Shown: piece after piece, positions 2,122-37,861 of the stretch | How the letters are laid out: every line of letters starts with the position of its first letter | Numbering within the stretch: the stretch's first letter is position 1 | NCBI GenBank assembly: GCA_963693055.1 | Contig: OY843751.1 | Span: 2,528,001-2,592,000, forward strand | DNA length: 64,000 nucleotides | Source: a bacterium | Lineage (GTDB): Bacteria > Zhuqueibacterota > Zhuqueibacteria > Residuimicrobiales > Krinioviventaceae | Direction of reading: 5' to 3' | Made by a program: the position numbers and the translations under genes | Notes under the pieces: model-generated | The model's database searches: none | Told to the model about the DNA's origin: nothing | Seen by the model: only the letters and a program-made list of their open reading frames with translations

Positions 2122-3636
2122 TTGTTACGAATATGTTTTGGAGTGTTTTGGGTGATTGATCATAATCCCGGGATTACGATCTCTTTTATTATCTATTTAA
2201 TTTTCATGTTATCTATTGGTTGGTTTTTCTACAAACGTACCAGAAATTTATCTGATTATATTCTGGGAGGTAGAAACCTCAATTCATGGGTAACTTCTTT
2301 GAGTGCTCAGGCATCAGATATGAGTGGCTGGCTTTTACTTGGATTACCAGGATATGCTTATTTGTCCGGTATGGATTCTATTTGGATGACTGCGGGCCTT
2401 GCTTTGGGTACATATCTAAACTGGAAATTTGTTGCAGCCCGTTTAAGAAATTATACTCATATTTCTTCTGATTCTTTAACCTTACCGGTTTATTTTGAAA
2501 ATCGCTTTAAACCAAATTCACCTGTCATTAGAATTGTTTCAGCCATATTTATTTTGATATTTTTTCTTATTTATACTGCATCCGGATTTGTAGCAGGTGC
2601 AAAATTGTTCAATACTGTATTTGGTTTTAATTATGTTTCAGCATTGTCAATTGGTGTATTTGTGATTATTGCATATACCTTTTTAGGAGGTTTCTGGGCA
2701 GTAAGTTGGACTGATTTTTTTCAAGGTATGATCATGTTTTTTGCTATACTCATTGTACCTGTTTTGGCTTTTAAAAGCTCTGGTGGTTCAAGTCCTATAC
2801 AACAAGCATTACGCTCTATTCCAGGTTTTCTTGATCCATTTACGTCAGGAGAGAGTAAAAGAATTTCCTTTATTGCAATAATTTCATTAGCAGCATGGGG
2901 TTTGGGTTATTTTGGACAGCCTCATATCCTGGCAAGATTTATGGCAATAAGATCAGTAAAACAAATACCTCGGGCCCGAAGAATTGCAATGGGTTGGGTT
3001 TTGCTTTGTTTAACGGGTGCTATGTTTGTAGGCATAACCGGACGTGCATTAATTACTCCAATGCTGGATACCACTGCCTCAGAAACAGTTTTTATGGTAA
3101 TGGTACATGAATTGGTTCATTCCTGGTTTTCCGGTTTTTTACTGGCAGCTATACTTGCTGCAATTATGAGTACCGCAGACTCGCAATTACTGGTAGCTTC
3201 TTCAGCAGTTACCGAAGATTTGTATAAATTATTACTACATAGAAATGCAAGCGAAAAAGAACTTGTATGGACCAGCAGAGTAGCGGTTGTGCTAATTGCT
3301 GTTATTGCATATTTTATTGCTATGAATCCTGAATCAAATGTTTTAGAGCTTGTTTCTTATGCATGGGCCGGATTTGGAGCTACTTTTGGACCCATTATAT
3401 TATTTTCATTATTTTGGAAACGAATGACAAGTAACGGCGCTCTTGCCGGAATGATTGTTGGTGGTATAACTGTTTTAGTATGGAAACAGTTGTCTGGTGG
3501 TTTATTTGATTTATATGAACTAGTCCCCGGATTTATTTTTTCTGCAATAGCTATTGTTCTTGCCAGTTTAATAGATGACATGCCAGCATTGGACATTCAA
3601 AAAGAATTTGAATTAGCAAAATTACAAAACGATTAA
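2122..3636 (+). CDS. putP: Sodium/proline symporter (true start probably GTG ~2152)
   Basis: SDMSGWLLLGLPG, WGLGYFGQPHILARFMA, AAIMSTADSQLL motifs; many TM helices. Confidence 0.92.
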   Translation: MLRICFGVFWVIDHNPGITISFIIYLIFMLSIGWFFYKRTRNLSDYILGGRNLNSWVTSLSAQASDMSGWLLLGLPGYAYLSGMDSIWMTAGLALGTYLNWKFVAARLRNYTHISSDSLTLPVYFENRFKPNSPVIRIVSAIFILIFFLIYTASGFVAGAKLFNTVFGFNYVSALSIGVFVIIAYTFLGGFWAVSWTDFFQGMIMFFAILIVPVLAFKSSGGSSPIQQALRSIPGFLDPFTSGESKRISFIAIISLAAWGLGYFGQPHILARFMAIRSVKQIPRARRIAMGWVLLCLTGAMFVGITGRALITPMLDTTASETVFMVMVHELVHSWFSGFLLAAILAAIMSTADSQLLVASSAVTEDLYKLLLHRNASEKELVWTSRVAVVLIAVIAYFIAMNPESNVLELVSYAWAGFGATFGPIILFSLFWKRMTSNGALAGMIVGGITVLVWKQLSGGLFDLYELVPGFIFSAIAIVLASLIDDMPALDIQKEFELAKLQND

Positions 3637-3648
3637 CGATAAATAGGG

Positions 3649-4146
3649 TTGGAGGTTTGTGTGGAAGAGATTATCCGAAATTTGGCTCGGATACGTGACA
3701 ACAATATTTATTTTTCTCTTGAAGGTGAAATCATATCCGGTAGTAAACATGATTTTGCTTTATTTGATAAATATTCAAAGCTGGAAAATTTTCTCAAAGA
3801 AAACGAAAAAATATTGTCAAGTAATAATCTTGATTTTTCTGATAAATGTTATGCTACAATCAATGTTAATATTTTACCAAAGTATGTCAAGCTAACAGAG
3901 CCATCAGTAACTATTTTGATTTCTAATGTTAATTCAAGTTCTCAAAAACCTGTTACGTTTTCAAAATGTCGTTTGAATTTTGATGGTTTTAATTTTTATG
4001 GAATTTTGTTTTTTCCCCACATGGACGAAAACAAATCTTCAACAGTTGAAATAATTGCACCCTTTATACCTGGTTTAAAAACAGGGGATAGGATTCAAAT
4101 TGATGTGAATTCTAAAGAATTTCAGATTCTGGAAAATGGGAATTAG
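3649..4146 (+). CDS. Hypothetical protein
   Basis: 165-aa ORF directly after putP with GGAGG near the start; no motif recognised. Confidence 0.55.
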   Translation: MEVCVEEIIRNLARIRDNNIYFSLEGEIISGSKHDFALFDKYSKLENFLKENEKILSSNNLDFSDKCYATINVNILPKYVKLTEPSVTILISNVNSSSQKPVTFSKCRLNFDGFNFYGILFFPHMDENKSSTVEIIAPFIPGLKTGDRIQIDVNSKEFQILENGN

Positions 4147-4191
4147 ATTCATGGGGTACATTTGAAACAGGACTGTTTGGAGAATTTATTT

Positions 4192-4219
4192 AAAGCCGGA
4201 GTGAATTCACTCCGGCTTT
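4192..4219. terminator. Bidirectional intrinsic terminator
   Basis: aaagccggagtgaattcactccggcttt perfect inverted repeat between convergent genes. Confidence 0.75.
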
Positions 4220-4224
4220 TACGT

Positions 4225-4782
4225 TTAATTTACTTTATTAATAGAACACCCAAATGCTTTGGTTGTTGCTGTTGGTACCTGTTTACCGGTAATAATTGCC
4301 AATAAAACATCCTCGAGATCATGTGAGGTAATGTTGTCAGGATTTTTAGAATCATCAATTCTGCCATGATAAAGCAGTTCTCGTTTTGAATTTAATACAA
4401 AAACTTCGGGCGTAACTGTCGCTCCCAATCTGTCAGCAATTAAATTGTTTCTATCAATGAGTACAGGAAACATGAAATCTTTTTCGACAGCGTGTTGCTT
4501 GATTTGTTTGGTTGTTTCTGTTCTATTGGAATTTATACCAATAAAAGCCACTCCCTTGCTATGAAAAGATGTATAAAGCTTGTTCATTCTATCATTGTAA
4601 GCATTAGAAACCGGGCATTGACTCGAGATAAACAACAGCACAATCGCTTCATTATCATTATAATTACTCAGCTTGTAAGATGTTCCATTAAAATCTTCCA
4701 GCGTAAAATCCTCTATTGTTTCACCAGCAAATAAAAATCCATATAATATTGATATAAAAAATAGAAATAAAATTCTCTTCAT
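4225..4782 (-). CDS. Secreted AhpC/TSA (redoxin, thioredoxin-fold) protein
   Basis: Signal peptide; DFTLEDFNG, CPVS, TPEVFV, YHGRIDD, AFGCSI. Confidence 0.88.
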   Translation of the reverse strand: MKRILFLFFISILYGFLFAGETIEDFTLEDFNGTSYKLSNYNDNEAIVLLFISSQCPVSNAYNDRMNKLYTSFHSKGVAFIGINSNRTETTKQIKQHAVEKDFMFPVLIDRNNLIADRLGATVTPEVFVLNSKRELLYHGRIDDSKNPDNITSHDLEDVLLAIITGKQVPTATTKAFGCSINKVN

Positions 4783-4946
4783 TTACTGCCTCCGTATATT
4801 TTTATTAATATACAATAGAACAACTACGATTTTGCTTTTATTTCTCTCCACAATTCATTTATTTACACTATGTTTTAGATAGTAATTAGACATAATTGCT
4901 TAAAATTTAGACAATATTACCAGTATGATAAATTTTTATTTTGTAT

Positions 4947-6278
4947 CACTACTGTCCCAATATTAGTTGAATAAATTCAATTGGTTATCATTTTGTAAGC
5001 CATGAGTAAGATTATCATTGTTGCTAAGTAACTGTAAAATAGGAGTTCTTTGAAACATATTAACGCTTAATATTTGCAAAAAAGTGTAGAGCGGAATCGC
5101 AATATTCAAACGTTTCTTTATTATCGCTATAAGCACGTATATACATATTGCAATCCATATTTGCGATTTAACGGCATTGACTGAAGTGCCATAAAAGGAC
5201 TTAATTTTTAGGTTTTGTTTTATCCATTTAAAAAACAATTCAATTTGCCAGCGGCATCTATATAGTTCAGGAATAGTTAATGCCGGCAAGTTAAAAATAT
5301 TTGTCAACAAAACGAGCGTTCGTTTTTGATCAGTTATGTATATTTTAACGCGTCTGAGTCTTTCAGGATAATCTCGTGATGCATAGTAATTCACTAAAGA
5401 AACTGTTTGATCACATCGAAGACCTGTACTTTTATTAACCGGATGTGAATAGACCCTTTTAGCTTTAAGGTTCGACTTTGCCGGAATGACAAAAAAGGCT
5501 CCAGCTTGATGGAATCTATACAGACGCTCAAAATCTATGTAACCCTTGTCTAGCAAATATATGGCGCCAGGCTCAGGAATCAACATATCAAGAATGTTAA
5601 CATCGTGGATTTTCCCTTCAGTTATCTCTATAAAAGTTGGTATGTTACCACGAAGGTCCATTTGAGTATGCACTTTTATAGCACCTTTTGATTTTCTAAA
5701 TCTGGCCCATGGAAATAAAGAAAGGCACAAGTCAATTGTTGTTGAATCTAATGCGTAAACCATTTCTTTTAATTCAAGGCCGAATTTTTCATCACGATAT
5801 AACTTGCGGGCCTGATTAATAAGTATTTGAGCAAATTCAGCATAGATGCGCCAGTCTCGATGTTCATTTGCATTAGCCAAAGTATTTCGAGCAACTATGC
5901 TGCGAAAACCCATGTGGTAAAGTAGTTTTCGTTGTGATCTTAAACAAGCTTCTATATCTCTCAAACTATCTCGGAAAGTGAGTTGGGCAAAAGCCATGCA
6001 ATAAAATTGATCAAGACACGAGAAGGATTTAACTTTATACTCTCCTCTGTATTTGTGGACGCAACGATGGAATGCCTTTAAAGGCAGGAATTCCATTATT
6101 TGAGAAAAAACAGTTTTCCCTTCGTGCATTTCGCCATTCCTCCGCCATTGTTTTGTTGTGATAGAATGGTGAAATGTAATAATTTAATTCAAATCGTTCC
6201 CGTTAAAAATGATAGCGTAAAGATATAATTAACAATTAAATACAATCACTACTTTCCCCTAACGTTGGGACAGTAGTG
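4947..6278 (-). mobile_element. IS4-family insertion sequence
   Basis: IRs cactactgtcccaa / ttgggacagtagtg; 9-bp TSD attttgtat at 4938-4946 and 6279-6287. Confidence 0.93.
4963..6129 (-). CDS. IS4-family transposase (DUF4372 + DDE)
   Basis: DSTTIDL, DKGYIDF, YRCRWQIELFFKWIKQ (YREK) motifs. Confidence 0.95.
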   Translation of the reverse strand: MHEGKTVFSQIMEFLPLKAFHRCVHKYRGEYKVKSFSCLDQFYCMAFAQLTFRDSLRDIEACLRSQRKLLYHMGFRSIVARNTLANANEHRDWRIYAEFAQILINQARKLYRDEKFGLELKEMVYALDSTTIDLCLSLFPWARFRKSKGAIKVHTQMDLRGNIPTFIEITEGKIHDVNILDMLIPEPGAIYLLDKGYIDFERLYRFHQAGAFFVIPAKSNLKAKRVYSHPVNKSTGLRCDQTVSLVNYYASRDYPERLRRVKIYITDQKRTLVLLTNIFNLPALTIPELYRCRWQIELFFKWIKQNLKIKSFYGTSVNAVKSQIWIAICIYVLIAIIKKRLNIAIPLYTFLQILSVNMFQRTPILQLLSNNDNLTHGLQNDNQLNLFN

Positions 6279-6360
6279 ATTTTGTATAATTTATCTACTG
6301 CTTTGTGTCAGAATTAACTTTTAATCCCCAATTGCTGTTAATTCCAAAAGGAGGAAAATC

Positions 6361-7614
6361 ATGTCATCACAAGAATATCCCATTTTTATCCAAACCGCAT
6401 TTCCTGAACAACCAGATTTAGATAATTGGCAGCAAATTACCAAAGACGAAGCAGATTTAGTTTATAAAATGACAATTGAAAATGAATTGTCTGGTGGAAC
6501 ACCTGTCGTTCGCCAGTTTGAAAAAGACTGGCGAGAATGGTGCAATCTTGAATATTCTATTACGACTTTAAATGGCAGCTCTGCCTTATATAGTGCTTTC
6601 TTTGGACTCGGTGTTGGTCCTGGGGATGAAGTGATTTGTCCAACATATACCTGGATTTGTACGATTGCACCTGCATTGTTTCTGGGAGCAAGACCCGTAT
6701 TTGTTGAAAGTGATCCGGAAACTTTGCAGATAGATCCTAAAGACATTAGAAAAAAAATTACTCCCAAGACCAAAGCTATCGTTGTTGTGCATTTGTGGGG
6801 CAATGTTTGCGATATGGATGCTATTATGCAAATCAGTAAAGACACCGGAGTCAAAGTTCTTGAAGATTGTTCTCATGCTCATGGAGCTAAATATAATGGT
6901 TCGATTGTAGGTTCAATTGGACATGTAGGTGCCTGGAGTTTACAGGGTAGTAAACCGGTAAGTGCGGGTGAAGGAGGCATAATGGCCACAAATGATCCCG
7001 AGATTTTTGAGCGTGCCTGCCTTGCCGGCCAGGTAAACCGTATTGGTGGTATTGATCTTGTATCCCAAAAATATTCTGATCTGCAGCCTTTAGGACTGGG
7101 AATGAAGTTCAGAGCACATCCATTGGGAATTGGTATTGCAAGTGTACAATTTAAAAAATTATCTACATTGAACGCTAACCGAAAAATATATGTAGAAACT
7201 GTTGAAGAACAATTAAAAGGCATTCCCGGTTTCAAACCACTCAGAGTGTACCCCAAAGCAGAACGTGGTGGGTATTATGCTTTTCCAATTATTCATGAAC
7301 CTGAATTTCACAATAATATTGATACATTGAAAATGATAGAATTGATTCAAAATGAAGGACTGTCGGCATCTAAGAGCCCTTATAGTCTGTTACACCGGCT
7401 GCTTGTTTTTGGCAAAGGTTTTGATATTTTTACTGAAAATAGAGGCCCGCTTTGTGGTGACTATCCAGGTTATAACGAAGGAGATTTTCCTGTATCTGAA
7501 AAAATGTACAAAAATTTAATATTTTTACCAATTCTTTCAAATCCTGTAAAAGGCGCAGCAGACAGGGTTGTTGATATGTTACAAAAAGCTGCGAACAAGG
7601 CAATAAACTCGTAA
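6361..7614 (+). CDS. DegT/DnrJ/EryC1/StrS PLP-dependent aminotransferase
   Basis: NGSSAL, GDEVI, VVHLWG, EDCSHAHG, SLQGSKPVSAGEGG. Confidence 0.92.
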   Translation: MSSQEYPIFIQTAFPEQPDLDNWQQITKDEADLVYKMTIENELSGGTPVVRQFEKDWREWCNLEYSITTLNGSSALYSAFFGLGVGPGDEVICPTYTWICTIAPALFLGARPVFVESDPETLQIDPKDIRKKITPKTKAIVVVHLWGNVCDMDAIMQISKDTGVKVLEDCSHAHGAKYNGSIVGSIGHVGAWSLQGSKPVSAGEGGIMATNDPEIFERACLAGQVNRIGGIDLVSQKYSDLQPLGLGMKFRAHPLGIGIASVQFKKLSTLNANRKIYVETVEEQLKGIPGFKPLRVYPKAERGGYYAFPIIHEPEFHNNIDTLKMIELIQNEGLSASKSPYSLLHRLLVFGKGFDIFTENRGPLCGDYPGYNEGDFPVSEKMYKNLIFLPILSNPVKGAADRVVDMLQKAANKAINS

Positions 7615-23530: not shown

Positions 23531-23719
23531 TTAATTGTTATCTCTGAATATTTCCTGTTTCAATATGATTTTTTTGTCAAGTACTTGAAGACCATATTTG
23601 ACCGTCCAACCTTTGGTTGCTAGCATGTTGTGGGAAAGTAATCTGCTTTCAAGATCTGATGTAAATCCAATATAAATTTTATCATATTTTTCAGAATATA
23701 AAACATATGTAATGAACAT
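23531..23719 (-). pseudogene. Truncated duplicate of the GIY-YIG nuclease gene
   Basis: First ~41 codons identical to 23821..24078, then unrelated sequence. Confidence 0.85.
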
Positions 23720-23767
23720 GGAAACCCCTTGAAATAAAAAAGGACCATCAAATGATGATCCTTATTT

Positions 23768-23820
23768 TAGTAGCGGGGGGCGGATTTGAACCGCCGTTCG
23801 CCAACTGGCGAATATGAGCC
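23768..23820 (-). pseudogene. tRNA-Met 3'-half fragment with a palindrome next to the anticodon
   Basis: GGCTCATA-TTCGCCAGTTGGCGAA-CGGCGGTTCAAATCCGCCCCCCGCTACTA compared with the intact tRNA. Confidence 0.85.
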
Positions 23821-24078
23821 TCACGAATTTTTGTTTTGAGATATATAATTGCGAATAAATTCTCTACCTTTAGCAGATTTTAACTGTTTTTCCCGAATGA
23901 TAGCTTTTTTCTTGGATTCAAATTTTTCATTGTAGACAAGTATCCATGGACGAAATTTGACCGTCCAACCTTTGGTTGCTAGCATGTTGTGGGAAAGTAA
24001 TCTGCTTTCAAGATCTGATGTAAATCCAATATAAATTTTATCATATTTTTCAGAATATAAAACATATGTAATGAACAT
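23821..24078 (-). CDS. Small GIY-YIG nuclease family protein
   Basis: TYVL..KIYIG.TSDLESRL..HN..RPW..E..A..REKQLKS. Confidence 0.92.
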   Translation of the reverse strand: MFITYVLYSEKYDKIYIGFTSDLESRLLSHNMLATKGWTVKFRPWILVYNEKFESKKKAIIREKQLKSAKGREFIRNYISQNKNS

Positions 24079-24126
24079 GGAAACCCCTTGAAATAAAAAA
24101 GGACCATCAAATGATGATCCTTATTT

Positions 24127-24171
24127 TAGTAGCGGGGGGCGGATTTGAACCGCCGACCTTTGGGTTATGAG
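24127..24171 (-). repeat. att site (duplicated tRNA-fMet 3' part)
   Basis: Identical to 54506-54550; identity stops at the anticodon loop/stem. Confidence 0.93.
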
Positions 24172-24224
24172 TTCAAAGGTTTGACGGGTGTAAGTTGTTG
24201 ATAAAAAATAAGTTGTGGTTTTGC

Positions 24225-24237
24225 TTTTGGGCTTTTT
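24225..24237. promoter_or_regulatory. Putative integrase arm-type site (copy at 54393-54405)
   Basis: ttttgggcttttt occurs just inside both ends, each with a neighbouring tatggg variant. Confidence 0.5.
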
Positions 24238-24253
24238 ATGGGTTTGATTTTAG

Positions 24254-25321
24254 TTAAATTTTTAATTTATCAAACCTTTTTTTAAGATTTTCACGGGCTA
24301 TTTGGGTATAGTGTTTTGTCATTGAACCGGTTTTGTGACGAAGCATTTCCTGGGCAAGTCTTTCGTTTTTATCCGAAATTTCGTTCTCCATGATTCGCAG
24401 ACCAAATGTATGCCGCAGCATGTGTGCCGGTGATTTGATATGTTCAAGTCCGATTTTGTCAAGTGTGCGCCGGAATGTTCTTGAAACGGCATCTTTATTA
24501 TTGTTGAACAATTTTTTGTCCGGGTTGCCTGTCAGTAATTTTGCCCGGATGATCATGCGTTGTATGATCTGGTGCATGGGGATCAGTTCAATTTCACGGT
24601 TCTTGTTTTTTTCCAGTTTGATATATCCTTCTTTCAACAATATGTTTCTTTCCCTTAACTCGAGACATTCTGATCTGCGTAATCCCGCATACCGTAAAAA
24701 AAGGAATATAATTCTTATATTACTTTTAGGCAAGTTTTTATAAAACTCTTTTTCTTTTTCCCGGGGGAGTATATTCGGTACCGGTTTCGTTGCTGAAAAA
24801 AACTCAAAATCATCAAAAGGATTTATCGGAATATATTTTTTCCGTTTTGCCCAGGAGAAAATATCCCTCAGACATGACAGCTCTTTGTTTGCCCCGCGTC
24901 TTGCGCGTTGTACCTTTAAAAAATCATCCTGGTCAATCTTGGCCAGTCTCTGTTCCAGCAGGGAATTACGAAAGCTTTCCAGGCGTTCATCGGTGACTTT
25001 ATCAATAGTGAGATGAGGGCCCAGGTAATTTATTAACAATTTATATGAATGCAGGTTACGTTTTACGCTGATTTCAATAGACCGCTTTTCTTTATAGATG
25101 GAACCGAAATCCTGTAATGTAGGATAAATTTTCTGGGTAGAGGGAACAGCGCCGTTAATGCGCTGCTGTTCGATTTCCAGTTCTTTCTGCTTAACCCAGA
25201 GTTCAACGGATCTTTTGGGAGTGTTGGGTGGAAAGTACTTTCGATATCTTTTCCCTTGAACGTTAAACTGGACCCGATAGGCTGTACCGCTCTGCAATTC
25301 AATCTCTTCAATATAAGCCAT
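24254..25321 (-). CDS. Tyrosine recombinase / phage integrase
   Basis: GLRRSE, HMLRHTF, LRHK..MTKHY catalytic residues; N-terminal arm-binding-like region; next to att. Confidence 0.92.
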   Translation of the reverse strand: MAYIEEIELQSGTAYRVQFNVQGKRYRKYFPPNTPKRSVELWVKQKELEIEQQRINGAVPSTQKIYPTLQDFGSIYKEKRSIEISVKRNLHSYKLLINYLGPHLTIDKVTDERLESFRNSLLEQRLAKIDQDDFLKVQRARRGANKELSCLRDIFSWAKRKKYIPINPFDDFEFFSATKPVPNILPREKEKEFYKNLPKSNIRIIFLFLRYAGLRRSECLELRERNILLKEGYIKLEKNKNREIELIPMHQIIQRMIIRAKLLTGNPDKKLFNNNKDAVSRTFRRTLDKIGLEHIKSPAHMLRHTFGLRIMENEISDKNERLAQEMLRHKTGSMTKHYTQIARENLKKRFDKLKI

Positions 25322-25448
25322 AATAATCTATCCACAAAAAATTTTTCTCCCGAATAAAACTGAGGAGTGGTAAAATTCCTGTCAATAGATTTTATGATAT
25401 TTACTGCCAAAAAACAACCGGTTTCGTTTGTATTTTATACAAACGAAA

Positions 25449-26953
25449 GTTCAATCCCATCTTAGTTAATAGGTCTTTTCCAATTCTTTAAATCCTCGTG
25501 ACGGGTACTTCTCCTTTCTTACGTTGTCTCAATCCCATCATAGTTAATAGGTCTTTTCCAATCGTTGTTTTACCGGTACTGGAATCTTCACAAAAAACTT
25601 TAGTCTCAATCCCATCATAGTTAATAGGTCTTTTCCAATATTTCCGGCAGTGTTCGCTACACAATTGGAGACAATAAACAGTCTCAATCCCATCATAGTT
25701 AATAGGTCTTTTCCAATAAACAGCCGCGCTAAAGGCAAAGTGGAAAACTCGTTCAGTCTCAATCCCATCTTAGTTAATAGGTCTTTTCCAATAATCTGTG
25801 ACAAGTCAGGATATTGGTGTTGGTATCATCAGTCTCAATCCCATCATAGTTAATAGGTCTTTTCCAATATGAAATATGTTGCTAAGATTGTTGATGAAGG
25901 TAACAGTAATAGTCTCAATCCCATCATAGTCAATAGGTCTTTTCCAATTCAAAGATACGCTTGATGTGTTTATGGATGAAGTACGTCTCAATCCCATCAT
26001 AGTCAATAGGTCTTTTCCAATGGTGGAAATGTAACTCATATTACAATCGACTATATTGCTATCCAAGAGTCTCAATCCCATCATAGTCAATAGGTCTTTT
26101 CCAATTGAAAAAGCGATTTGTGGCGCAGAAACCAACCGCAAAATTGTGTCTCAATCCCATCATAGTCAATAGGTCTTTTCCAATAATTTAACGCTAATAA
26201 TTTGTCTAGCGGGGTTTATTTTGTCTCAATCCCATCATAGTTAATAGGTCTTTTCCAATTTTTTATAGACAGCCTACAAGTGGCTGTGAAGACTAAGTCT
26301 CAATCCCATCATAGTTAATAGGTCTTTTCCAATTGGCAGTAAGCCGGCTTGGGTTACACACTGGAACAAAAGTCTCAATCCCATCATAGTTAATAGGTCT
26401 TTTCCAATCATTACAAATGCAAAGCTTGATGACAAGTTCCAAAAGTATGATGAGTCTCAATCCCATCATAGTTAATAGGTCTTTTCCAATTACAATTTTT
26501 GCAGCCGGTGAAAAACAATATGTGTTCGAGTCTCAATCCCATCATAGTTAATAGGTCTTTTCCAATCTGTTGCAAAAACAACAGCACCCTTTGCACTAAC
26601 GTCACTGTCTCAATCCCATCATAGTTAATAGGTCTTTTCCAATTGGCTTGAGCAACTAGCTCTTATAACAAGGTGAAAGATTTCTAGTCTCAATCCCATC
26701 ATAGTTAATAGGTCTTTTCCAATTGCGCTATGGTGACTTGAAAGGTGTAGACAGTTTTCCTGTAGGTCTCAATCCCATCATAGTTAATAGGTCTTTTCCA
26801 ATCAAAACTGGCAGTGCTGACAAAATCGGAAAAATTGCGTCTCAATCCCATCTTTTCTTATAGGTCTTTTCTGATCAAAGAAAGTGATTAATGTGAAAGG
26901 TAAATTAGTGAGAGTGGTGTCTCAATCCCATCTATTCTAATAGGTCCAAATAC
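25449..26953 (-). CRISPR. CRISPR array 1: 20 repeats / 19 spacers (~36-47 nt); repeat ATTGGAAAAGACCTATTAACTATGATGGGATTGAGAC
   Basis: 37-bp repeat counted directly; orientation from the ATTGAGAC 3' handle and the cas operon direction; terminal repeats degenerate. Confidence 0.97.
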
Positions 26954-27042
26954 ATAAAAAGGCGGATTGTATACCCACCTTTAGTTTAAAATTGAATACA
27001 ATGTTTTTAGATAAAAATTGTCAATGAACAAGAATCTTAAAG
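26954..27042 (-). promoter_or_regulatory. Putative CRISPR leader/promoter
   Basis: AT-rich; TTGACA on the minus strand at 27019-27024 followed by an imperfect -10. Confidence 0.4.
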
Positions 27043-28047
27043 CTATTCTTTCATCAGAAAATTAATTTCCTGGGTTAATTTTTCAATGAATTGATCTTTA
27101 TGAGTCACATCATACTTTACACATCGTTTATGTCGTAGATCGAAAGGTATATCATTTGTATCCTGAGTTAACATGATCACTTTTTTCTTTTGAGCATTGG
27201 CAAGACCTAATTCGTAAAAAACATTGGGATTTTTATTTGTCAAATCCGCAATGATGATCGCTGATTTCAATATATTTTCTTCAACTTTATCCATAATACC
27301 ACCTTGAAATATCTCTTCATCAACTCTTACACATTTTAAATTCATACTTTCAGTAATGTTTCTAATCCACGTATAAATTGTATCAAAGTTGGGGTCAAAT
27401 GGCATTATAACAAAGACAAAGTTTCTGTCAAAATTTATTCCATACGGACTGTATTTTATCAATTGTTCAGTGCCCGGTATTGGACGAGCATTGTTGGGAT
27501 CATATTCAGAAAAAAGGTAAAACGCATCCATAGACTGAATTTTTATGGCTGAACTTACAGCACCTAATGACATTATTTTGGTACCGCCTGTCAAATCAAT
27601 AGCTAAATTTTCAATTTCATATTTGTATTGATTTAGCATTTCATCTTTCCATTTAAAAATTTTACTCTCTACATTATTTTGTTCATCACTACTTATGTTG
27701 ATTATTTCGTACTTTAACAATGGATTCACTTTTTTTATCTCGTTTATGAATAAATCAAAGTGATTATTAAAATGATATATTTTTGATATATTCGAAAATC
27801 CGAAAGTAACAAGTTCTGGCTTCATTATGGCAATAAACAATGCTATGTTTTCTATAGTAAAGCCAAAAGGTACAAAAATGGATTTATATTGTGAATTAGT
27901 AATTCTATTTTTAACCAGTTCATTAGTGTTTTCTTTTAATTGTTCAACACTTAATTTGAAAATTCTTTCAAAATAGAATTCAATATTAAAATTTGATTGT
28001 TCCCAAATTTTGAACAAGTTTTGTAATAATTTTCGTCTATTTACCAT
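27043..28047 (-). CDS. CARF domain fused to a nucleoside 2-deoxyribosyltransferase/TIR-like domain (putative cOA-activated effector)
   Basis: CARF signature IDLTGGTKIMS; C-terminal FVIMPF...IIADLTNKNPNVFYELG...IPFDLRH. Confidence 0.8.
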   Translation of the reverse strand: MVNRRKLLQNLFKIWEQSNFNIEFYFERIFKLSVEQLKENTNELVKNRITNSQYKSIFVPFGFTIENIALFIAIMKPELVTFGFSNISKIYHFNNHFDLFINEIKKVNPLLKYEIINISSDEQNNVESKIFKWKDEMLNQYKYEIENLAIDLTGGTKIMSLGAVSSAIKIQSMDAFYLFSEYDPNNARPIPGTEQLIKYSPYGINFDRNFVFVIMPFDPNFDTIYTWIRNITESMNLKCVRVDEEIFQGGIMDKVEENILKSAIIIADLTNKNPNVFYELGLANAQKKKVIMLTQDTNDIPFDLRHKRCVKYDVTHKDQFIEKLTQEINFLMKE

Positions 28048-28048
28048 T

Positions 28049-28963
28049 TTAATTCCTTATATTTCTTGAAAAGTTGTTCAATATTCTATCTTTAATAATT
28101 ACTGATGGATCTTCTCTGTTTATTTTTTTGATTTTCATTTGTTCCAAATCATTGATATCTAGCAATACTATCAATCGAACCTCATTTCTTATTGAATTGG
28201 AAAAGGCTTTCTGCATTAATCCCCAAATAGAGCTTTGATCTGTTGGTTTAAAGCGACATATTAATAAAGTTAATGGTACTTTTGTGAAAATGGTATCCTG
28301 AAAAAAAAGGGTGTATTTGAAGCATTGCATAAAATCATTTGGTTTCGGTTTTTTATTTTTTACTTCAACAATAATATTGTCAAAATAAAATCCTGTTTTT
28401 TCAATTGCATTGAAATGGTCAAATTTTTCATAAAAGCCATCGAAAACAATACCATTAACATTCTCTTGTTTTCTTTTCAAGTCATGTAAGTACAACATAT
28501 CTATAAATGTCAAAACTAACTTTTCGAATGGTTTTCCAAATTTTTTATCACCAAAATCGGAATTCAATATTTGATTAAATAAATATTCAAGTTGTTCATC
28601 GATTCTCACAAGATATTGTTCATATAAATTTATTAAATCATCAGCACTAGTCCGGATCGGTCCCATTATAGTCTTTGTTGATTTACTATTTGTTGTAAAT
28701 AATTGAATTTTTTCTTCAACATCGAGTAATTGTTTGTTGTGATTATCTATACGTATATTGGGATTATTAAAATAATTGAGATTTTCAAATAAAGGTTTAA
28801 GGATTACTGGTGTCCTTAAATCGTACAACGATGAAAGTTTTTTTAGAGATTTCGAGAGCTTTTCATCGAGTTTATCTTTCAAATCTAAAATCTCTCTTTG
28901 AAAATCTTTTTCTAAATCATAAAGTGGGGCTAAATCGTTCTCTCTGTCGTCAATCATATTCAT
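28049..28963 (-). CDS. Helical N-domain + Mrr-like PD-(D/E)xK nuclease
   Basis: GKPFEKLV...FDG...IIVEVKN...QCFKY pattern. Confidence 0.65.
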   Translation of the reverse strand: MNMIDDRENDLAPLYDLEKDFQREILDLKDKLDEKLSKSLKKLSSLYDLRTPVILKPLFENLNYFNNPNIRIDNHNKQLLDVEEKIQLFTTNSKSTKTIMGPIRTSADDLINLYEQYLVRIDEQLEYLFNQILNSDFGDKKFGKPFEKLVLTFIDMLYLHDLKRKQENVNGIVFDGFYEKFDHFNAIEKTGFYFDNIIVEVKNKKPKPNDFMQCFKYTLFFQDTIFTKVPLTLLICRFKPTDQSSIWGLMQKAFSNSIRNEVRLIVLLDINDLEQMKIKKINREDPSVIIKDRILNNFSRNIRN

Positions 28964-28972
28964 ATTTACTTG

Positions 28973-29908
28973 TTATACTATAAATGATAGACCATATCTA
29001 TGAATAGTGTGTACATCTAAAAATAGATCAGGGGTTACGTTTACAACCTGGCCATTTATGGGTTTAGTAAATATTGATCCCTCTGCCACCATTTTGCATT
29101 CTTTTCTTTTTAATTGAACAGAAGTTGAATATGAATGGAACCAGCCTCTTCTATTCAAGATTTTGAATGAATTCAAATGAACAGCCTCATTATTCTTGGG
29201 TGAACAGAGTGATAAGTTGATGTATGTTCCTTTTGGTTTTTGTTCCAATAATTCTTTCCATCTGGCTTGATTGTCAATTTGAGTCATTTTATAAATAAAG
29301 TGCCCATTACCTACACTTCTATCACCACCCAATCCTTCTTCTGCCAAGAGATTTAAACCAACAGTAAATAATTTAATAAATTCACTATCATTGATCTCGA
29401 CAATGAAAAATAATCCTGCACCGTATTTAAAGGAAAAACCGAATGATTCATATAATTGTGTAACTGTCGATATTCGATCAATTGTAACACGTGGACGAAA
29501 AGTTGGAAACATTATCTCGTTTAGGGGGTCGTTAAATTCTCTGGACAATAACGAATTTTCATCATTAATAATTGTTTTGAAATCGTTCAAATCCAAAAAA
29601 TGAACATCTTTTAATTTGGATTGATAAAAGTTTGATGTTCCCCTTGGTGTGGGCAAATAAAATGTATTGCCCATGTATGGAAAAGCAGAGGTCAAGCGGA
29701 AGGGAGGTGTCTCCGAATTTAATTTTTTTATCAATACTTTAATCCAATTGTTATATCTATTACATTCGGGTAGCCTCATCCATTGGCTCACCAATGCGCT
29801 AAACAGGGTGTCGGAGTGAATGATGCCCTTAAACTCATCATCATCTGATAACAAGCTTGATGACAGGGTTAAAGAACGCTTGAAAGAAAGTTTAATAAGC
29901 CAAAACAC
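28973..29908 (-). CDS. csm4: Type III-A RAMP Csm4 (Cas5 group)
   Basis: IHSDTLFSAL, LTSAFPY..YLPTP, RPRVTIDR, GLGGDRSVGNG; GTG 29908 after GGAGG. Confidence 0.92.
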   Translation of the reverse strand: MFWLIKLSFKRSLTLSSSLLSDDDEFKGIIHSDTLFSALVSQWMRLPECNRYNNWIKVLIKKLNSETPPFRLTSAFPYMGNTFYLPTPRGTSNFYQSKLKDVHFLDLNDFKTIINDENSLLSREFNDPLNEIMFPTFRPRVTIDRISTVTQLYESFGFSFKYGAGLFFIVEINDSEFIKLFTVGLNLLAEEGLGGDRSVGNGHFIYKMTQIDNQARWKELLEQKPKGTYINLSLCSPKNNEAVHLNSFKILNRRGWFHSYSTSVQLKRKECKMVAEGSIFTKPINGQVVNVTPDLFLDVHTIHRYGLSFIV

Positions 29909-30785
29909 TGCTGCTTGCCTCCTTGAGAAAATTGATGATTTCATCAATATAGCTGCGCGCTTGTTTGATATCAAAGGATTCACTTTGTAATTCTGTTGAA
30001 TTTTTTTCATCATCCCCGGTGTAATAATAATCGAGTGAACGGGCAAAAAAACTGGAAAAATTAAATTTAATTTTTCCGTATCCACGGGATGAATACCCAC
30101 CTAAAGCTTCATCTTCAATAATACTCATAGCGGCGAGTATATTTTGAAGATCTTTTTTGACTGTTTCAGCGTTAAATCTAATGTCCTTGTTTTCTTTTGA
30201 AATAATTTCTACAGCATAGATCATTTCAAAATTGAAAATACTGTCAGGCAAGACCCTTTCTACGCGACGTGGATTTGCAGACATATCCTTACGATCAATA
30301 CCGGTTTCGGTTTTTACTTCTGTAAATTCTGTTTGTTGTGTAATAATACTTGAATCCAACAAACAATCTCGAACTAATAGAGCAGAAGGCATATTTTCAG
30401 CTTTGGGTTTTTTTACCAGTTTTGATCTATCATCTCCACTCGATCCAAAAATCCTGCATACATCGCAGGTAATAGCAAGGTCGAAATCTTCACAACAGTG
30501 TATGTTTACTTGGTTGCGAAATGTCCCAATGTTACGGTTGTTTTCCAATTTTTCAATTTTCCCATTAACACTACGTGTTCCAACTTTCTCTACAGTACTA
30601 CGCAATTTACCCTTTAGTGAACTACCCGGTATGTAAGGCAAATTACTTGCGCTATCCCTGATAATTGGTAAATCCACACCGCCAATTTGCATAGATTCAT
30701 TTGAACCACCGATATGTAAGCCTGTTTTTATGACGATATTTCCTTGAAAGTATATTTTACCCAATAACAATCTTTTTTGTGTCAT
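29892..30785 (-). CDS. csm3: Type III-A RAMP Csm3 (Cas7 group)
   Basis: TGLHIGG, GGVDLPIIRD (catalytic D), PYIPGSSLKGKLR, CDVCRIFG, LGGYSSRGYG. Confidence 0.95.
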   Translation of the reverse strand: MTQKRLLLGKIYFQGNIVIKTGLHIGGSNESMQIGGVDLPIIRDSASNLPYIPGSSLKGKLRSTVEKVGTRSVNGKIEKLENNRNIGTFRNQVNIHCCEDFDLAITCDVCRIFGSSGDDRSKLVKKPKAENMPSALLVRDCLLDSSIITQQTEFTEVKTETGIDRKDMSANPRRVERVLPDSIFNFEMIYAVEIISKENKDIRFNAETVKKDLQNILAAMSIIEDEALGGYSSRGYGKIKFNFSSFFARSLDYYYTGDDEKNSTELQSESFDIKQARSYIDEIINFLKEASSSVLAY

Positions 30786-33640: not shown

Positions 33641-34627
33641 TCATTCTGTAATAGTTACTCTTATTTTCCCCAACCCAAAACTTGTCCCTTTGCCGATGTG
33701 GAGGACCTGGCTCTGCAGCAGAAGGGGAGTGAATCCATTTATGTTGCCGGCAAGAAGGATATCGCCGATAAAGCCGCCGATCTCCATTTTTGTGTTTTGC
33801 CGGGAGCTGTACCGGTGCCAGTCCTGCCATTTCAGATGCGGGTCCATAATTGCCACTTCATTTGCCTGGACAAGATAGGGGTGGAAGTGCCAGTCGATTT
33901 CATTTTCCGGAGCGTAGAAATGCGCGAGCTCTAAAAGGCGCCGGAGCATTTTAAACACCAACAGTCGGAAAGAGAAATCCATTATATATTGGTCTTCGTA
34001 TTTTAATCGGGTAGGCGTGAGAAACCGGACTTGAACCTGGTCGTGCTCCGAATCCTCATAGTGCGGATGAGTGGGGATTGCCTGGGCGCAGAGGGATTCA
34101 GTTTCTCCTTTGTAGATCAGTGTTTCGGTAAAAGTGTTTTCTGCCAGGGAATGTTGTTCCGGATTTATCCAATAAACATTATGGAGTTGGAACGGCAATC
34201 GCTTTGATGAAAGTCCCCGTTTGGCCATGAGACTGATGGAGTAAATAATGTATGGATAAAGCGCTCCAATATTACCGAGGAGCGTCAGGGTAAAGCTGAA
34301 CGTATCGCCCTGGGCATACTCGGTTTTTTGATCAAAAGCGTCTATGATGTATGGCCGGGGAGAGGTTGGTAATTTGCTTAAAAAGGGCGGAGGGGTTCCC
34401 TCGACATAAGTCTCAAAAATTTTTGTGTAGGTACACTGGCTCCGGAACAGGCAGGATTGACAGGATTCCTGTTTTTTCTGAATGCAGACAGTCCGTTTTA
34501 ACGCACTGCCAAATGCTCCCCTCAGCATGGATCCCTTAATCCTGGGCAGTGTGCATACCTGTTCGGCCTGAAGAACGAATTTCAGTTTCAAATAGGGAAT
34601 AATAGGAAGACAGTAATCCACGGTCAT
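33641..34627 (-). CDS. cas6: Cas6 crRNA-processing endoribonuclease (Cys-cluster type)
   Basis: GSMLRGAFG, CI..CQSC....C, FLTPTRL, HIGKGTSFGLG glycine-rich loop. Confidence 0.93.
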   Translation of the reverse strand: MTVDYCLPIIPYLKLKFVLQAEQVCTLPRIKGSMLRGAFGSALKRTVCIQKKQESCQSCLFRSQCTYTKIFETYVEGTPPPFLSKLPTSPRPYIIDAFDQKTEYAQGDTFSFTLTLLGNIGALYPYIIYSISLMAKRGLSSKRLPFQLHNVYWINPEQHSLAENTFTETLIYKGETESLCAQAIPTHPHYEDSEHDQVQVRFLTPTRLKYEDQYIMDFSFRLLVFKMLRRLLELAHFYAPENEIDWHFHPYLVQANEVAIMDPHLKWQDWHRYSSRQNTKMEIGGFIGDILLAGNINGFTPLLLQSQVLHIGKGTSFGLGKIRVTITE

Positions 34628-35865: not shown

Positions 35866-37296
35866 CAGGGTACCCCCGATTTTTTTATTCGAGGGCCAAA
35901 AATAATTGATTTTTGTCACCGGCATGATTATTACACTTTAATTTTCTGAGCTTTATATTGGGTAAAATGATCCTTAATGCCTTTGCCAGTTTATAATAAA
36001 CAAACCCAATAAACTCGTTTAATTTCCTTCTATACACCAACGGAGCTTGAGATTGATCTAAAATATGTAAACAAATATTATCCAAATGACAATAGATAAA
36101 ACTCATGACATTCCAAAACAGGGCATTAAAATTTTTTAGCGCAACATACCTTTTAAGGCAAATGTCTTCAAGATGATAATCATTTTTTATTTGACGATGT
36201 ACCTCTTCAATTTTCCACCGGTAACCATAGCCTTCCATGGTAATCTCTATGGCCTCACGTTCAGTCTCTGCCGGTATAAAGCTTAAAAACCAGCTTTTGC
36301 CTTTGCCAGGTTCAGTGACTGAAATCAGCCATAATCCGGTGTTCATTGGGCCATCCCCATACTGCTTTGGCAGATATACCTTACGGGCACCGCATTGAAA
36401 ACATCGCTTTATCAGCCTGTTCCGGCGTTTTTTCTGCACGGTAATTTCAGTACTGGGACGGATTTTTTCGGCATATTTCTTTAAATTCTTCTTTACTCCT
36501 TGAACAAATATATCCCGGTACCCGGTTTGCCGTATTATAAAGTGTTGTTTTTGCTTAATCCATTTGTTCATCAGTTTGCTACGATCACCTCCGCGATCAT
36601 AAACAACTATCTGTTCTCCATGAATATGTTCTCGAATCGTGTCCACGGATTCGAGGATTTTCTTGTTCTCTGAAATACCTTTGCCTTCTTCCTGATCCGT
36701 CGCCCAAAGCGTACTCACCAGCGGCATGATGGATGTACCGGTTTTATCAACTCCAATGATATTCAGTTGCCAGTATCCATTCCCTAGTTCTTTGGTACTA
36801 CCATCATAAACACGATCAAGCCCTTCCATCTTTTCCGCATAAGGCTTGATTATATCACTCATATCTGCTATCAAGTATTTCGAATCCGAAAACCTTCTTT
36901 TGTTTATTTTCAGATGACTAATGGTTAATTCTCTGTCAAATCCTGGGCGGCCCAAGTGGCTAGACATTCGTTCTGTTGTCTTTTTTAGGCTCGTCTCTTC
37001 CTTTAGGGTTGATGCGATTTTATTTAAATGTACATGCCCGGAGCAAAGTATCCCATAATGCATGTCTCTGATAAATTTATAGTCCGGTCGGTTGAATTCT
37101 GCTTGATATTTCGCTGTCACTTGATTAAGTTTTACTTGGACTCGTTTTGTGATGTCCATGGGTTGCCTCCTATATTATGGTCTGTCAACTATAATGAGGC
37201 AACCTTTTTTTATTTTTACAAGCTTTTTTTGCTTCTATCTCCATTATTTTTTATTACTTACAGTAATATGATTTGTGATTTTTCGGGGGTGTCCTG
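35866..37296 (-). mobile_element. IS4-superfamily insertion sequence
   Basis: IRs cagggtacccccga / tcgggggtgtcctg; 10-bp TSD tattttgaaa at 35856-35865 and 37297-37306; ggttgcctc...gaggcaacc hairpin covers the RBS. Confidence 0.92.
35885..37159 (-). CDS. DDE transposase (IS4 superfamily)
   Basis: IADMSDI, YDRGGD, YGYRWKIEEVHRQIK. Confidence 0.92.
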   Translation of the reverse strand: MDITKRVQVKLNQVTAKYQAEFNRPDYKFIRDMHYGILCSGHVHLNKIASTLKEETSLKKTTERMSSHLGRPGFDRELTISHLKINKRRFSDSKYLIADMSDIIKPYAEKMEGLDRVYDGSTKELGNGYWQLNIIGVDKTGTSIMPLVSTLWATDQEEGKGISENKKILESVDTIREHIHGEQIVVYDRGGDRSKLMNKWIKQKQHFIIRQTGYRDIFVQGVKKNLKKYAEKIRPSTEITVQKKRRNRLIKRCFQCGARKVYLPKQYGDGPMNTGLWLISVTEPGKGKSWFLSFIPAETEREAIEITMEGYGYRWKIEEVHRQIKNDYHLEDICLKRYVALKNFNALFWNVMSFIYCHLDNICLHILDQSQAPLVYRRKLNEFIGFVYYKLAKALRIILPNIKLRKLKCNNHAGDKNQLFLALE

Positions 37297-37332
37297 TATT
37301 TTGAAAGGGGGAATACATTTTGTGTGAAAAAT

Positions 37333-37674
37333 AATCCCATCATAGTTAATAGGTCTTTCCAGTCCATTATCATGGATAAAATGTCAGGTCGTTCAAAAGG
37401 TTTTGGGTCTCAATCCCATCATAGTTACCAGGTCTTTTCCAATCTTGTTTGAGGGGCTCCTGATCTTGCAAAAACTTATGGTCTCAATCCCATCGTATTG
37501 ATTAGGTCTATTTACAGTAGGCTATTTCGAACAAGACGGCCAGACGCGAGCACAATTGTTGTCTCAATCCCATCGTATTGATTAGGTCTATTTACAGCTA
37601 TTAGATAAAGAGGGTAGTATGAAAAAGAAAGCTGGAATAGTCTCAATCCCATCGTATTGATTAGGTCATTCCAC
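37333..37674 (-). CRISPR. CRISPR array 2: 5 repeats / 4 spacers, hybrid of repeat A and repeat B (CTGTAAATAGACCTAATCAATACGATGGGATTGAGAC)
   Basis: Repeats at 37333 (partial A), 37407 (A), 37481, 37561, 37640 (B). Confidence 0.92.
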
Positions 37675-37861
37675 GTGAGACGTGAAACGTAAGACGGTAA
37701 ACGATCTTTTGACCTTGCGAAAATGTCAAAGAACGGGGGAGTTGTCAGTCATCGGTTATCAGTTTTCAGAACCACCCGGGGGTTCGTTGTATTCCATATT
37801 TCTTGAGCTGAGCGTCAGTCGGTCCCTGAGTAGACCGCCGCCAGGCGGACGTACCGAAGGG

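Follow-up and report, generated by a model that had tools for sequence, protein, structure and literature searches.

The window, meaning the whole stretch of 64,000 nucleotides that was analysed, carries a type III-A CRISPR locus on the minus strand. The genes run in the order cas6-cas10-csm2-csm3-csm4-X-CARF-NDT and are followed by the main CRISPR array (Table 1); X denotes the protein encoded directly after csm4. The neighbours of X were assigned to cas6, cas10/csm1, csm2, csm3 and csm4 using Pfam, PADLOC and NCBIfam. The NCBIfam models TIGR02578, TIGR01870, TIGR02582 and TIGR01903, which correspond to the type III-A core set, were matched over cut-off. The order cas10-csm2-csm3-csm4-X-CARF-NDT given in the initial annotation was confirmed from the ORF coordinates, as were the gaps of 9 nt between csm4 and X and 1 nt between X and CARF-NDT.

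Table 1. Features of the type III-A locus and its surroundings (positions refer to the window).
Feature	Position	Strand	Remarks
X, 304 aa, helical bundle plus predicted PD-(D/E)xK nuclease	28049..28963	-	usual csm5 position
X residues ~4-124, predicted acidic, fast-changing helical bundle	28592..28954	-	mean pairwise identity 18%
X residues ~125-304, predicted FokI/BspD6I-like nuclease module	28052..28591	-	E147/D175/E200-x-K202/Q213xxxY217
CARF-NDT effector, 334 aa	27043..28047	-	CARF to ~203, NDT/TIR-like domain ~205-334
csm4	28973..29908	-	likely GTG start at 29908 (homologue comparison); listed ORF starts at 30100
csm3, 297 aa	29892..30785	-	catalytic-position Asp D38
csm2, 162 aa	30807..31295	-	clade-conserved N-terminal extension
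cas10/csm1, 783 aa	31285..33636	-	HD motif region absent; Palm2 GGDD intact at 538
cas6	33641..34627	-	Pfam, PADLOC
CRISPR array	25448..26875	-	19 repeats of 37 nt, spacers 36-47 nt
Further degenerate repeat of main array	near 26920-26956
Hairpin bordering main array	25422-25448
Second short array, related repeats	37328..37676	-	upstream of cas6
DDE transposase gene	35885-37159		with RhuM/Fic fragment, separates second array from cas6

The Cas10 protein of the window was matched to TIGR02578 (753 positions) from position 91 onward, and no HD pair was found in its first 200 residues, in line with the earlier description of a Cas10 without the DNase domain. In the window Cas10 and in all six clade Cas10s scanned, the match began at profile positions 89-94. 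The Palm2 GGDD motif was present in 12/12 clade Cas10s examined, and Csm3 D38 was invariant in the 26 sequences aligned. The N-terminal extension of Csm2 (P-x-E-E-R-L...W-x-L) was conserved in 13/13 clade members, its Trp not being conserved in the controls, and this extension may aid capping of the complex without Csm5.

On the minus strand the repeat of the main array has the 3' end ATTGAGAC, which we take to resemble type III 5' tags. Spacers were compared with the host genome and matched at their own array alone, besides chance matches of 16-18 nt. A perfect 12/12 match to a sigma70-type promoter lies inside the CARF-NDT gene (27404-27431, minus strand) and is directed toward the array, with a terminator-like hairpin (26958-26982) between the two; overall, promoter matches showed no excess over shuffles (50 vs 41.7 +/- 6.5). 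A third array, whose 10 repeats are akin to the type III repeat, is located 240 kb away (C1:2798170-2799026), with no cas genes adjoining it among the genes scanned. The host also carries a separate type I-B system (C1:1488000-1508000), which holds the sole cas1 found. Beside the main array, positions 23571-25321 comprise a small ORF enclosed by a 226-nt duplication whose ends are tRNA-like, and then a tyrosine integrase. Genes past 38 kb (37930 onward) are phage-like in appearance, and the CRISPR locus may reside in an integrated element.

No Csm5 model was matched in the complete host genome (6.5 Mb, one contig, 100% complete). The single RAMP-family match of this genome was csm3, and four control Csm5 proteins gave no tblastn match. 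A csm5 gene elsewhere in the host was ruled out by these genome-wide searches. Csm5 was likewise not matched in three draft genomes with X, and a six-frame Csm5 profile scan of 25 loci returned only csm3 cross-matches at 20-27 bits, compared with 143 bits for control csm5. As controls, 18 other type III-A loci of the host phylum were used, 17 of which show the gene after csm4. This gene was csm5 over cut-off in 16/17, and in the seventeenth locus it was cut by the contig end. The "csm5 slot" previously proposed for X thus stands as a description of gene order; as a statement of function it is unproven and somewhat disfavoured.

X itself was compared with Csm5 and Csm2 by profile. Against 13 Csm5 proteins the hhalign probability was 0.1, and against Csm2 the profile probability was 0.2; the control comparison of Csm3 with Csm5 gave 96. 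No RAMP match for X was found in NCBIfam, PADLOC or Pfam. X as a diverged Csm5 or Csm2 was rejected on this absence of profile similarity. The control Csm5 proteins are basic (pI 8.1-9.8 in 13/13), whereas the N-terminal half of X is acidic.

The motif FE...D...EVK...QxxxY, previously pointed out in X, was located at F146-E147, D175, E200-V-K202 and Q213xxxY217. An alignment of 34 family members combined 15 locus-derived copies with 19 non-self representatives; the other nine of the 28, which were left out, comprised seven fragments, a duplicate of L088 and a 431-aa form. Aligned homologues were 19-40% identical to the window X. Residues D175, E200, K202, N203, Q213, P230 and R237 were invariant in 34/34, which takes the motif beyond a chance resemblance. 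Y217 was present in 33/34, and position 147 was Q or E in 33/34. QxxxY after ExK is an Mrr-type motif. The former label "Mrr-like" is therefore supported by the motif, but the Pfam Mrr_cat model (PF04471) was not matched and the closest solved folds were those of FokI and BspD6I. X had no family match in Pfam, PADLOC or NCBIfam, and none in Pfam even at E<=1. The reported absence of a CARF motif was upheld, with no PADLOC CARF model matched by X or any of the 34 family members.

An AlphaFold model of X built on 15 sequences had a pLDDT of 83.6 and a pTM of 0.85 (single-sequence model, pLDDT 35). It comprised a long helical bundle (residues about 4-124) and an alpha/beta domain, bearing out the helical N-terminal half noted initially. 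Among 48,161 solved chains the best three folds were the R.BspD6I small subunit (Z 11.7), Nt.BspD6I (11.5) and FokI (11.1). These FokI/BspD6I matches had rmsd values of 3.4-3.5 over 154-166 aligned residues (3.5 over 154 for the R.BspD6I small subunit) at 10-13% identity. NucC, Card1 and Can2 ranked lower (Z 7.3-8.1), NucC appearing at Z 8.1 (rmsd 4.5, 148 aligned) and 7.4. No RAMP, Csm2 or Cas10 chain was among the best 50 matches listed for this helical bundle and restriction-nuclease fold, where a weaker likeness is possible, and the N-terminal half resembled generic bundles only, among the structure matches listed. Foldseek ranked BspD6I/FokI enzymes first, above E 0.001, and no PDB structure or viral model reached E<=0.001. 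PDB sequence searches gave noise or designed helical bundles and no NucC match. Language-model neighbours, which serve as leads only, were Mrr_cat clusters (0.89-0.94).

By its catalytic residues and the restriction-endonuclease-like fold of the model, X is assigned to the PD-(D/E)xK nuclease superfamily, and metal-dependent DNA cleavage is predicted. FokI-type domains cleave as dimers. The helical bundle is the predicted docking or regulatory part. The family has a median pI of 6.1, and the N-terminal half is net negative in 32/34 members. For the X domains dN/dS was below 1 in 10/10 measurable comparisons (0.09-0.75), two further comparisons being saturated. X as a decayed pseudogene was ruled out by this purifying selection and the invariant catalytic residues.

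The nuclease module recurs at the C-terminus of non-CRISPR proteins with other N-terminal domains. It was found in Sll1717-family ATPases (probability 86) and in a non-CRISPR protein matched at probability 97, whose N-terminal part resembles a second Mrr-type domain on a reading of motifs by eye. N203 and R237, which are invariant and non-catalytic in X, recur in the non-CRISPR relative. A family of 460-485 aa without a Pfam match (L215, L216, L222, L231, L232) also ends in an X-type nuclease module; in two genomes it is divided between two ORFs, and it is possibly an undescribed restriction or defence protein. The 431-aa form (P0143) is an X relative with a duplicated N-terminal helical region, profile positions 14-117 matching its residues 6-111 and the full profile matching 122-424.

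Homologues of X are few. Word-index searches returned X alone from the sequence and one more protein from the alignment, and an exhaustive search of 1.84 billion representatives (50% identity clusters) returned 29 proteins at E<=0.001, including X. Metagenomes were scanned with the CARF-NDT alignment, which gave 23 loci, 21 of them showing DNA upstream of CARF-NDT. X or a remnant of it was present upstream in 20/21. It was full-length in 16, including L091 with a shortened C-terminus and the near-duplicate pairs L084/L085 and L099/L100, and was cut by the contig edge in two. In L086 it was split by an IS1595 transposase. In L081 (3188-3496) a clean 102-aa ORF encodes the helical N-terminal part only, closest to the P0146/P0149 type, and is either a remnant or a maintained nuclease-free form. 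In L093 X was absent and csm4 was joined directly to CARF-NDT. In these last three loci of the 21 the core and CARF-NDT were intact. No csm5 was seen in any of the 17 metagenome loci with a visible csm4 junction.

Genomes were also searched with X first, in sets of 167, 401, 390, 251, 201, 5 and 5 that partly overlap (those of 401 and 390 among them). Full-length X was found in four genomes, each time in the order csm4-X-CARF-NDT. One of these was the window, two were contigs of L089 and L088, and one was new. The helical-bundle form was not found outside this slot in the 167, 401, 390, 251 and 201 genomes, and X was not found in plasmids. The X profile found nothing in 80 GTDB loci obtained from the CARF-NDT alignment scan. 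Of the 28 non-self representatives, 12 were at least 50% identical to a copy of known context and 16 were context-less. Most loci were ascertained via CARF-NDT, so that X without CARF-NDT would be hard to detect. Wherever context was visible, CARF-NDT lay directly 3' of X, the co-occurrence with HD-less Cas10 and CARF-NDT suggested in the initial annotation was found, and homologues mostly unlinked to cas loci were not seen. The X gene recurs across many bacteria known from environmental DNA, and its family is tied to one Cas10 clade that is HD-less, GGDD-intact and csm5-less and carries CARF-NDT.

Some of these loci have further genes. In L100 the array of the csm5-less system is immediately followed by a second, canonical type III-A operon (3366-6388) with an HD-bearing Cas10 and csm2, and this operon could provide csm5 in that host. 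In L103 (404-3842) cas6 and cas10 are separated by an insertion of two AAA-ATPase genes, of which one has a weak PD-(D/E)xK match. In L085 (8002-9501), and also in L084 and L089, a SMODS nucleotidyltransferase and then a DUF6602 protein are found just beyond the array. The latter is presumably a NucC-like nuclease, and the pair looks CBASS-like.

The history of X was compared with that of its neighbours in 11 loci with six genes. Pairwise identities of Cas10, Csm2, Csm3, Csm4 and CARF-NDT correlated with one another at 0.80-0.95, and those of X correlated with the core and CARF-NDT at 0.29-0.47. The distance correlation was 0.29 for X with CARF-NDT and 0.86-0.92 for CARF-NDT with the core. The X alignment rejected both other topologies, that of the core at AU p 1.6e-7 and that of CARF-NDT at AU p 4.7e-6; CARF-NDT did not reject the core tree (p = 0.11). 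In close pairs the synonymous distance in X was 1.3 to 17 times that in csm4, which indicates allele exchange, and X alleles of 44-46% identity (N-terminal half 28-37%) were found beside cores of 83-96% identity. Three recent swaps were seen. Between L094 and L103 a block of X and CARF-NDT was replaced between conserved flanks, DNA identity being 91-98% in csm4, 43-68% in X, 60-79% in CARF-NDT and 82-94% downstream. Among L228, L089 and L084, one X and CARF-NDT block is common to L228 and L089 and is set against different csm4 genes. Between L099 and L101 the last two-thirds of X were replaced alone.

X is lost or broken in 3/21 loci, has a discordant tree and is swapped between near-identical cores, so it behaves like an exchangeable accessory effector and not like a core subunit. 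The suggestion that X has taken over the work of Csm5 is not supported, given that the core is intact without X, that X is swapped and that its N-terminal half is acidic where Csm5 is basic. X is likely an accessory rather than a structural substitute for Csm5.

CARF-NDT has about 55 full-length or near-full-length relatives of 37-46% identity, one of which is from an organism named by NCBI as a Thermodesulfovibrionales bacterium. In the alignment of 53 relatives (two fragments left out), the CARF motif residues were invariant, as was E279 of the C-terminal NV(Y/F)YELG motif (53/53), which we take to be the NDT/TIR catalytic residue. The nearest solved sequences were the Cam1 CARF (E 2e-8) and, weakly, DNPH1/Rcl N-hydrolases (E 0.002-0.005). 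The CARF part was over the Pfam Card1 cut-off; the C-terminal domain was below cut-offs, with PF05014 at 23.4 bits (cut-off 28.8) and CAP12 TIR at E 0.018. When GTDB and viral sequences were scanned with this alignment, the matches were mostly confined to the NDT-like domain. The family is without a model of its own in Pfam, NCBIfam and PADLOC. Because it couples a CARF sensor with an NDT/TIR-like domain whose Glu is invariant, CARF-NDT is a probable N-glycosidase, with NAD+ or nucleotide cleavage as its likely output.

A Cas10 tree was made from 27 rows (quick search, SH-aLRT only, midpoint root; the fragment L091 left out). Four other Cas10 rows labelled "noHD" were not used, that label resting on a narrow motif pattern (one was cut by a contig end and one was a motif variant). 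The window Cas10 nests among III-A Cas10s, and the 11 X-linked Cas10s formed one group (SH-aLRT 99). Their sister was a group of three HD-less Cas10s, L126, L130 and L134 (group 97, joint 99), with profile coverage starting at 218, 217 and 91. L126 and L134 retain csm5, and the X profile had no match in the genomes of this sister clade. Given the midpoint root, the tree places HD loss first, and the loss of csm5 with the gain of X and CARF-NDT would fall on the next branch. An arrival of X together with HD loss was rejected, HD already being gone in the csm5-keeping sister clade; for the same reason the initial proposal that X replaces the DNase domain missing from Cas10 is not supported as a reading of why X was recruited.

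The locus was set beside known systems. Like the S. epidermidis Cas10-Csm system of type III-A, it has cas10/csm1, csm2, csm3, csm4, cas6, an active Palm, a downstream CARF effector and type III-like repeats, but it lacks csm5 and HD, has an extended Csm2 and carries two effector genes without a family model of their own. In the parts of PMC10289348, PMC9762709 and PMC6447361 consulted, Csm5 is described as capping the Csm3 and Csm2 filaments and recruiting maturation nucleases. Type III-A2, as outlined in portions of Makarova et al. 2025 (PMC12669027), is similarly a reduced III-A with an active Cas10 and, in some loci, a CARF-less PD-(D/E)xK DNase, there NucC. On the same partial account III-A2 is without Cas11, whereas the present clade keeps Csm2, lacks Csm5 and has a nuclease that is apparently not NucC. 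Type I-E3, in which a nuclease is fused to Cas11 (PMC12669027, in part), resembles the locus in that a restriction-type nuclease was recruited into a class 1 effector operon. It differs from the locus, where X is encoded on its own, its helical part is without Csm2/Cas11 profile similarity and the system targets RNA.

Residues 125-304 of X are similar in predicted fold and in the motif E/Q...D...ExK...QxxxY to FokI, Nt.BspD6I, R.BspD6I2 and Mrr-type nucleases, but X is without a DNA-recognition domain. With the cyclic oligoadenylate (cOA)-activated NucC and Can2/Card1 it shares the PD-(D/E)xK superfamily and a place in a type III locus; it lacks the CARF of Can1, Can2 and Card1, and nothing in X shows the trimer pocket of NucC. 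In the sections of PMC9704534 covered, NucC is a CARF-less cOA-activated PD-(D/E)xK nuclease. Cat1 is given as a TIR-CARF protein in the parts of PMC12162218 and bioRxiv 10.64898/2026.09.16.751991 consulted, and the retron Ec86 NDT effector, from part of PMC13276650, is a precedent for an NDT acting on NAD+. Set beside these two, CARF-NDT pairs a CARF sensor with an NDT/TIR-like domain; unlike Cat1, as partly described there, it has an N-terminal Cam1-like CARF and an enzyme domain nearest, among solved sequences, to DNPH1/Rcl N-hydrolases and not to TIRs.

In the full-text literature searched, no csm5-less III-A with an X-type nuclease and no CARF-NDT was found, although the data files or supplements of PMC12669027, PMC10910872 and PMC11229360 may list such loci. 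Mrr, deoxyribosyltransferase and csm5 go unmentioned in the main text and two of the three supplements of PMC12669027, and no such system was found in the portions of PMC11229360, PMC10910872 and PMC9704534 covered. The csm5-less, HD-less type III-A variant with two new effector families is real, conserved and apparently undescribed.

X is predicted to cut non-specifically, its active site is intact and it has no sensor, so that something in the locus must restrain and activate it. The reading preferred here, at somewhat less than even confidence, is that X is a second effector switched on via CARF-NDT. The locus keeps the Cas10 GGDD and the Csm3 catalytic-position Asp and is without HD and csm5. 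By analogy with known type III systems, Cas10 would make cyclic oligoadenylate once target RNA is bound; cA4 is the probable form, given that the CARF is nearest to that of Cam1. The messenger would make CARF-NDT dimers close or polymerise and so turn on the N-glycosidase, with loss of NAD+ or nucleotides comparable to that caused by Cat1 or the retron Ec86 NDT effector. In the least certain step, the sensor-less X would bind CARF-NDT via its helical bundle. Messenger-bound CARF-NDT would then cluster or release the nuclease modules, which would dimerise and cut DNA non-specifically. X would in this way supply, as an accessory, the DNase arm that a Cas10 without HD is missing.

CARF-NDT was preferred as the scaffold because X was never seen without it, because X moves with it in 2/3 recent swaps, and because the core can do without X, in which no ligand pocket particular to the clade was seen. 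With N203 and R237 recurring in a non-CRISPR relative and the N-terminal half only 18% conserved, X has no evident dedicated messenger pocket, and control by a protein partner is therefore favoured. The dependence looks one-way: in L093, L081 and L086, where X is missing or damaged, CARF-NDT and the core are intact. Several points weigh against CARF-NDT as the scaffold. The discordance of the X and CARF-NDT trees counts as much here as against docking on the Csm complex, and the L099/L101 exchange replaced most of X alone. Block swaps are expected from adjacency alone too, and NDT/TIR domains are usually end effectors. In addition, the loci were mostly found via CARF-NDT, and 16 of the 28 non-self X representatives are without known context.

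[quoted passage not shown] In its more specific and rather unlikely form, a FokI-like X sits, by way of its acidic helical bundle, in the place of Csm5 on the Csm2/Csm3 end or on the Cas10 HD remnant, with cOA-activated CARF-NDT alongside; target RNA binding would bring the nuclease modules of X together. Loss of csm5 and gain of X on the same Cas10 branch (SH-aLRT 99), with csm5 retained in the HD-less sister, are consistent with docking, as is the finding of csm5 after csm4 in 16/17 control loci. The clade Csm2 extension and the conserved Cas10 HD remnant are candidate docking sites, the acidic bundle could bind basic Csm surfaces, and L081 retains the helical part alone as a clean ORF. CARF-NDT was gained on that branch as well, however, so the correlation with csm5 loss does not single out X. 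The Csm2 extension is retained in L093, a locus without X and without csm5. Strongly divergent X alleles stand beside near-identical cores, X has no profile similarity to Csm5 or Csm2, and the S. epidermidis complex assembles without Csm5, according to part of PMC9762709. If the Csm5-place form were true, the type III-A complex would be a DNA cutter guided as well as triggered by RNA, its nuclease head being interchangeable.

It is improbable that X is an independent nuclease of the restriction or abortive-infection type, with a phage protein or DNA feature sensed by its N-terminal half and no link to CRISPR signalling. Its free exchange against both neighbours and its loss in 3/21 loci would fit this, and its nuclease module is akin to those of stand-alone defence-type proteins (the Sll1717-family ATPase fusions and the tandem-nuclease proteins). 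Against it, the helical-bundle form occupies this one slot only, across a deep Cas10 clade with core identities down to 36-50%; it was never found elsewhere in the five larger, partly overlapping genome sets or in plasmids, and the swaps exchange X for another X at the same place. Least probable is direct sensing by X of a small molecule, either cyclic oligoadenylate as in NucC or an NDT-made nucleotide in a Thoeris-like two-step relay: this would explain how any X works with any clade core or CARF-NDT, and NucC is among the fold matches, but it scores well below the FokI-type domains, the N-terminal half is poorly conserved, key C-terminal invariants recur in a non-CRISPR relative, and no conserved patch specific to the CRISPR-linked X family was seen.

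Whether activation via CARF-NDT or one of these rivals is true, the biology would be new: a DNase coupled to cOA by a sensor-adaptor, a Csm-docked nuclease or a new messenger receptor. X and CARF-NDT are two effector families without a model in Pfam, NCBIfam or PADLOC, and CARF-NDT merits study by itself as a candidate cOA-activated N-glycosidase. The seven genes and the array are enough to rebuild the system in E. coli. A compact, conserved III-A architecture, the locus does without Csm5, which usually counts among the core subunits, and it lets Csm filament capping and crRNA maturation without Csm5 be tested directly.
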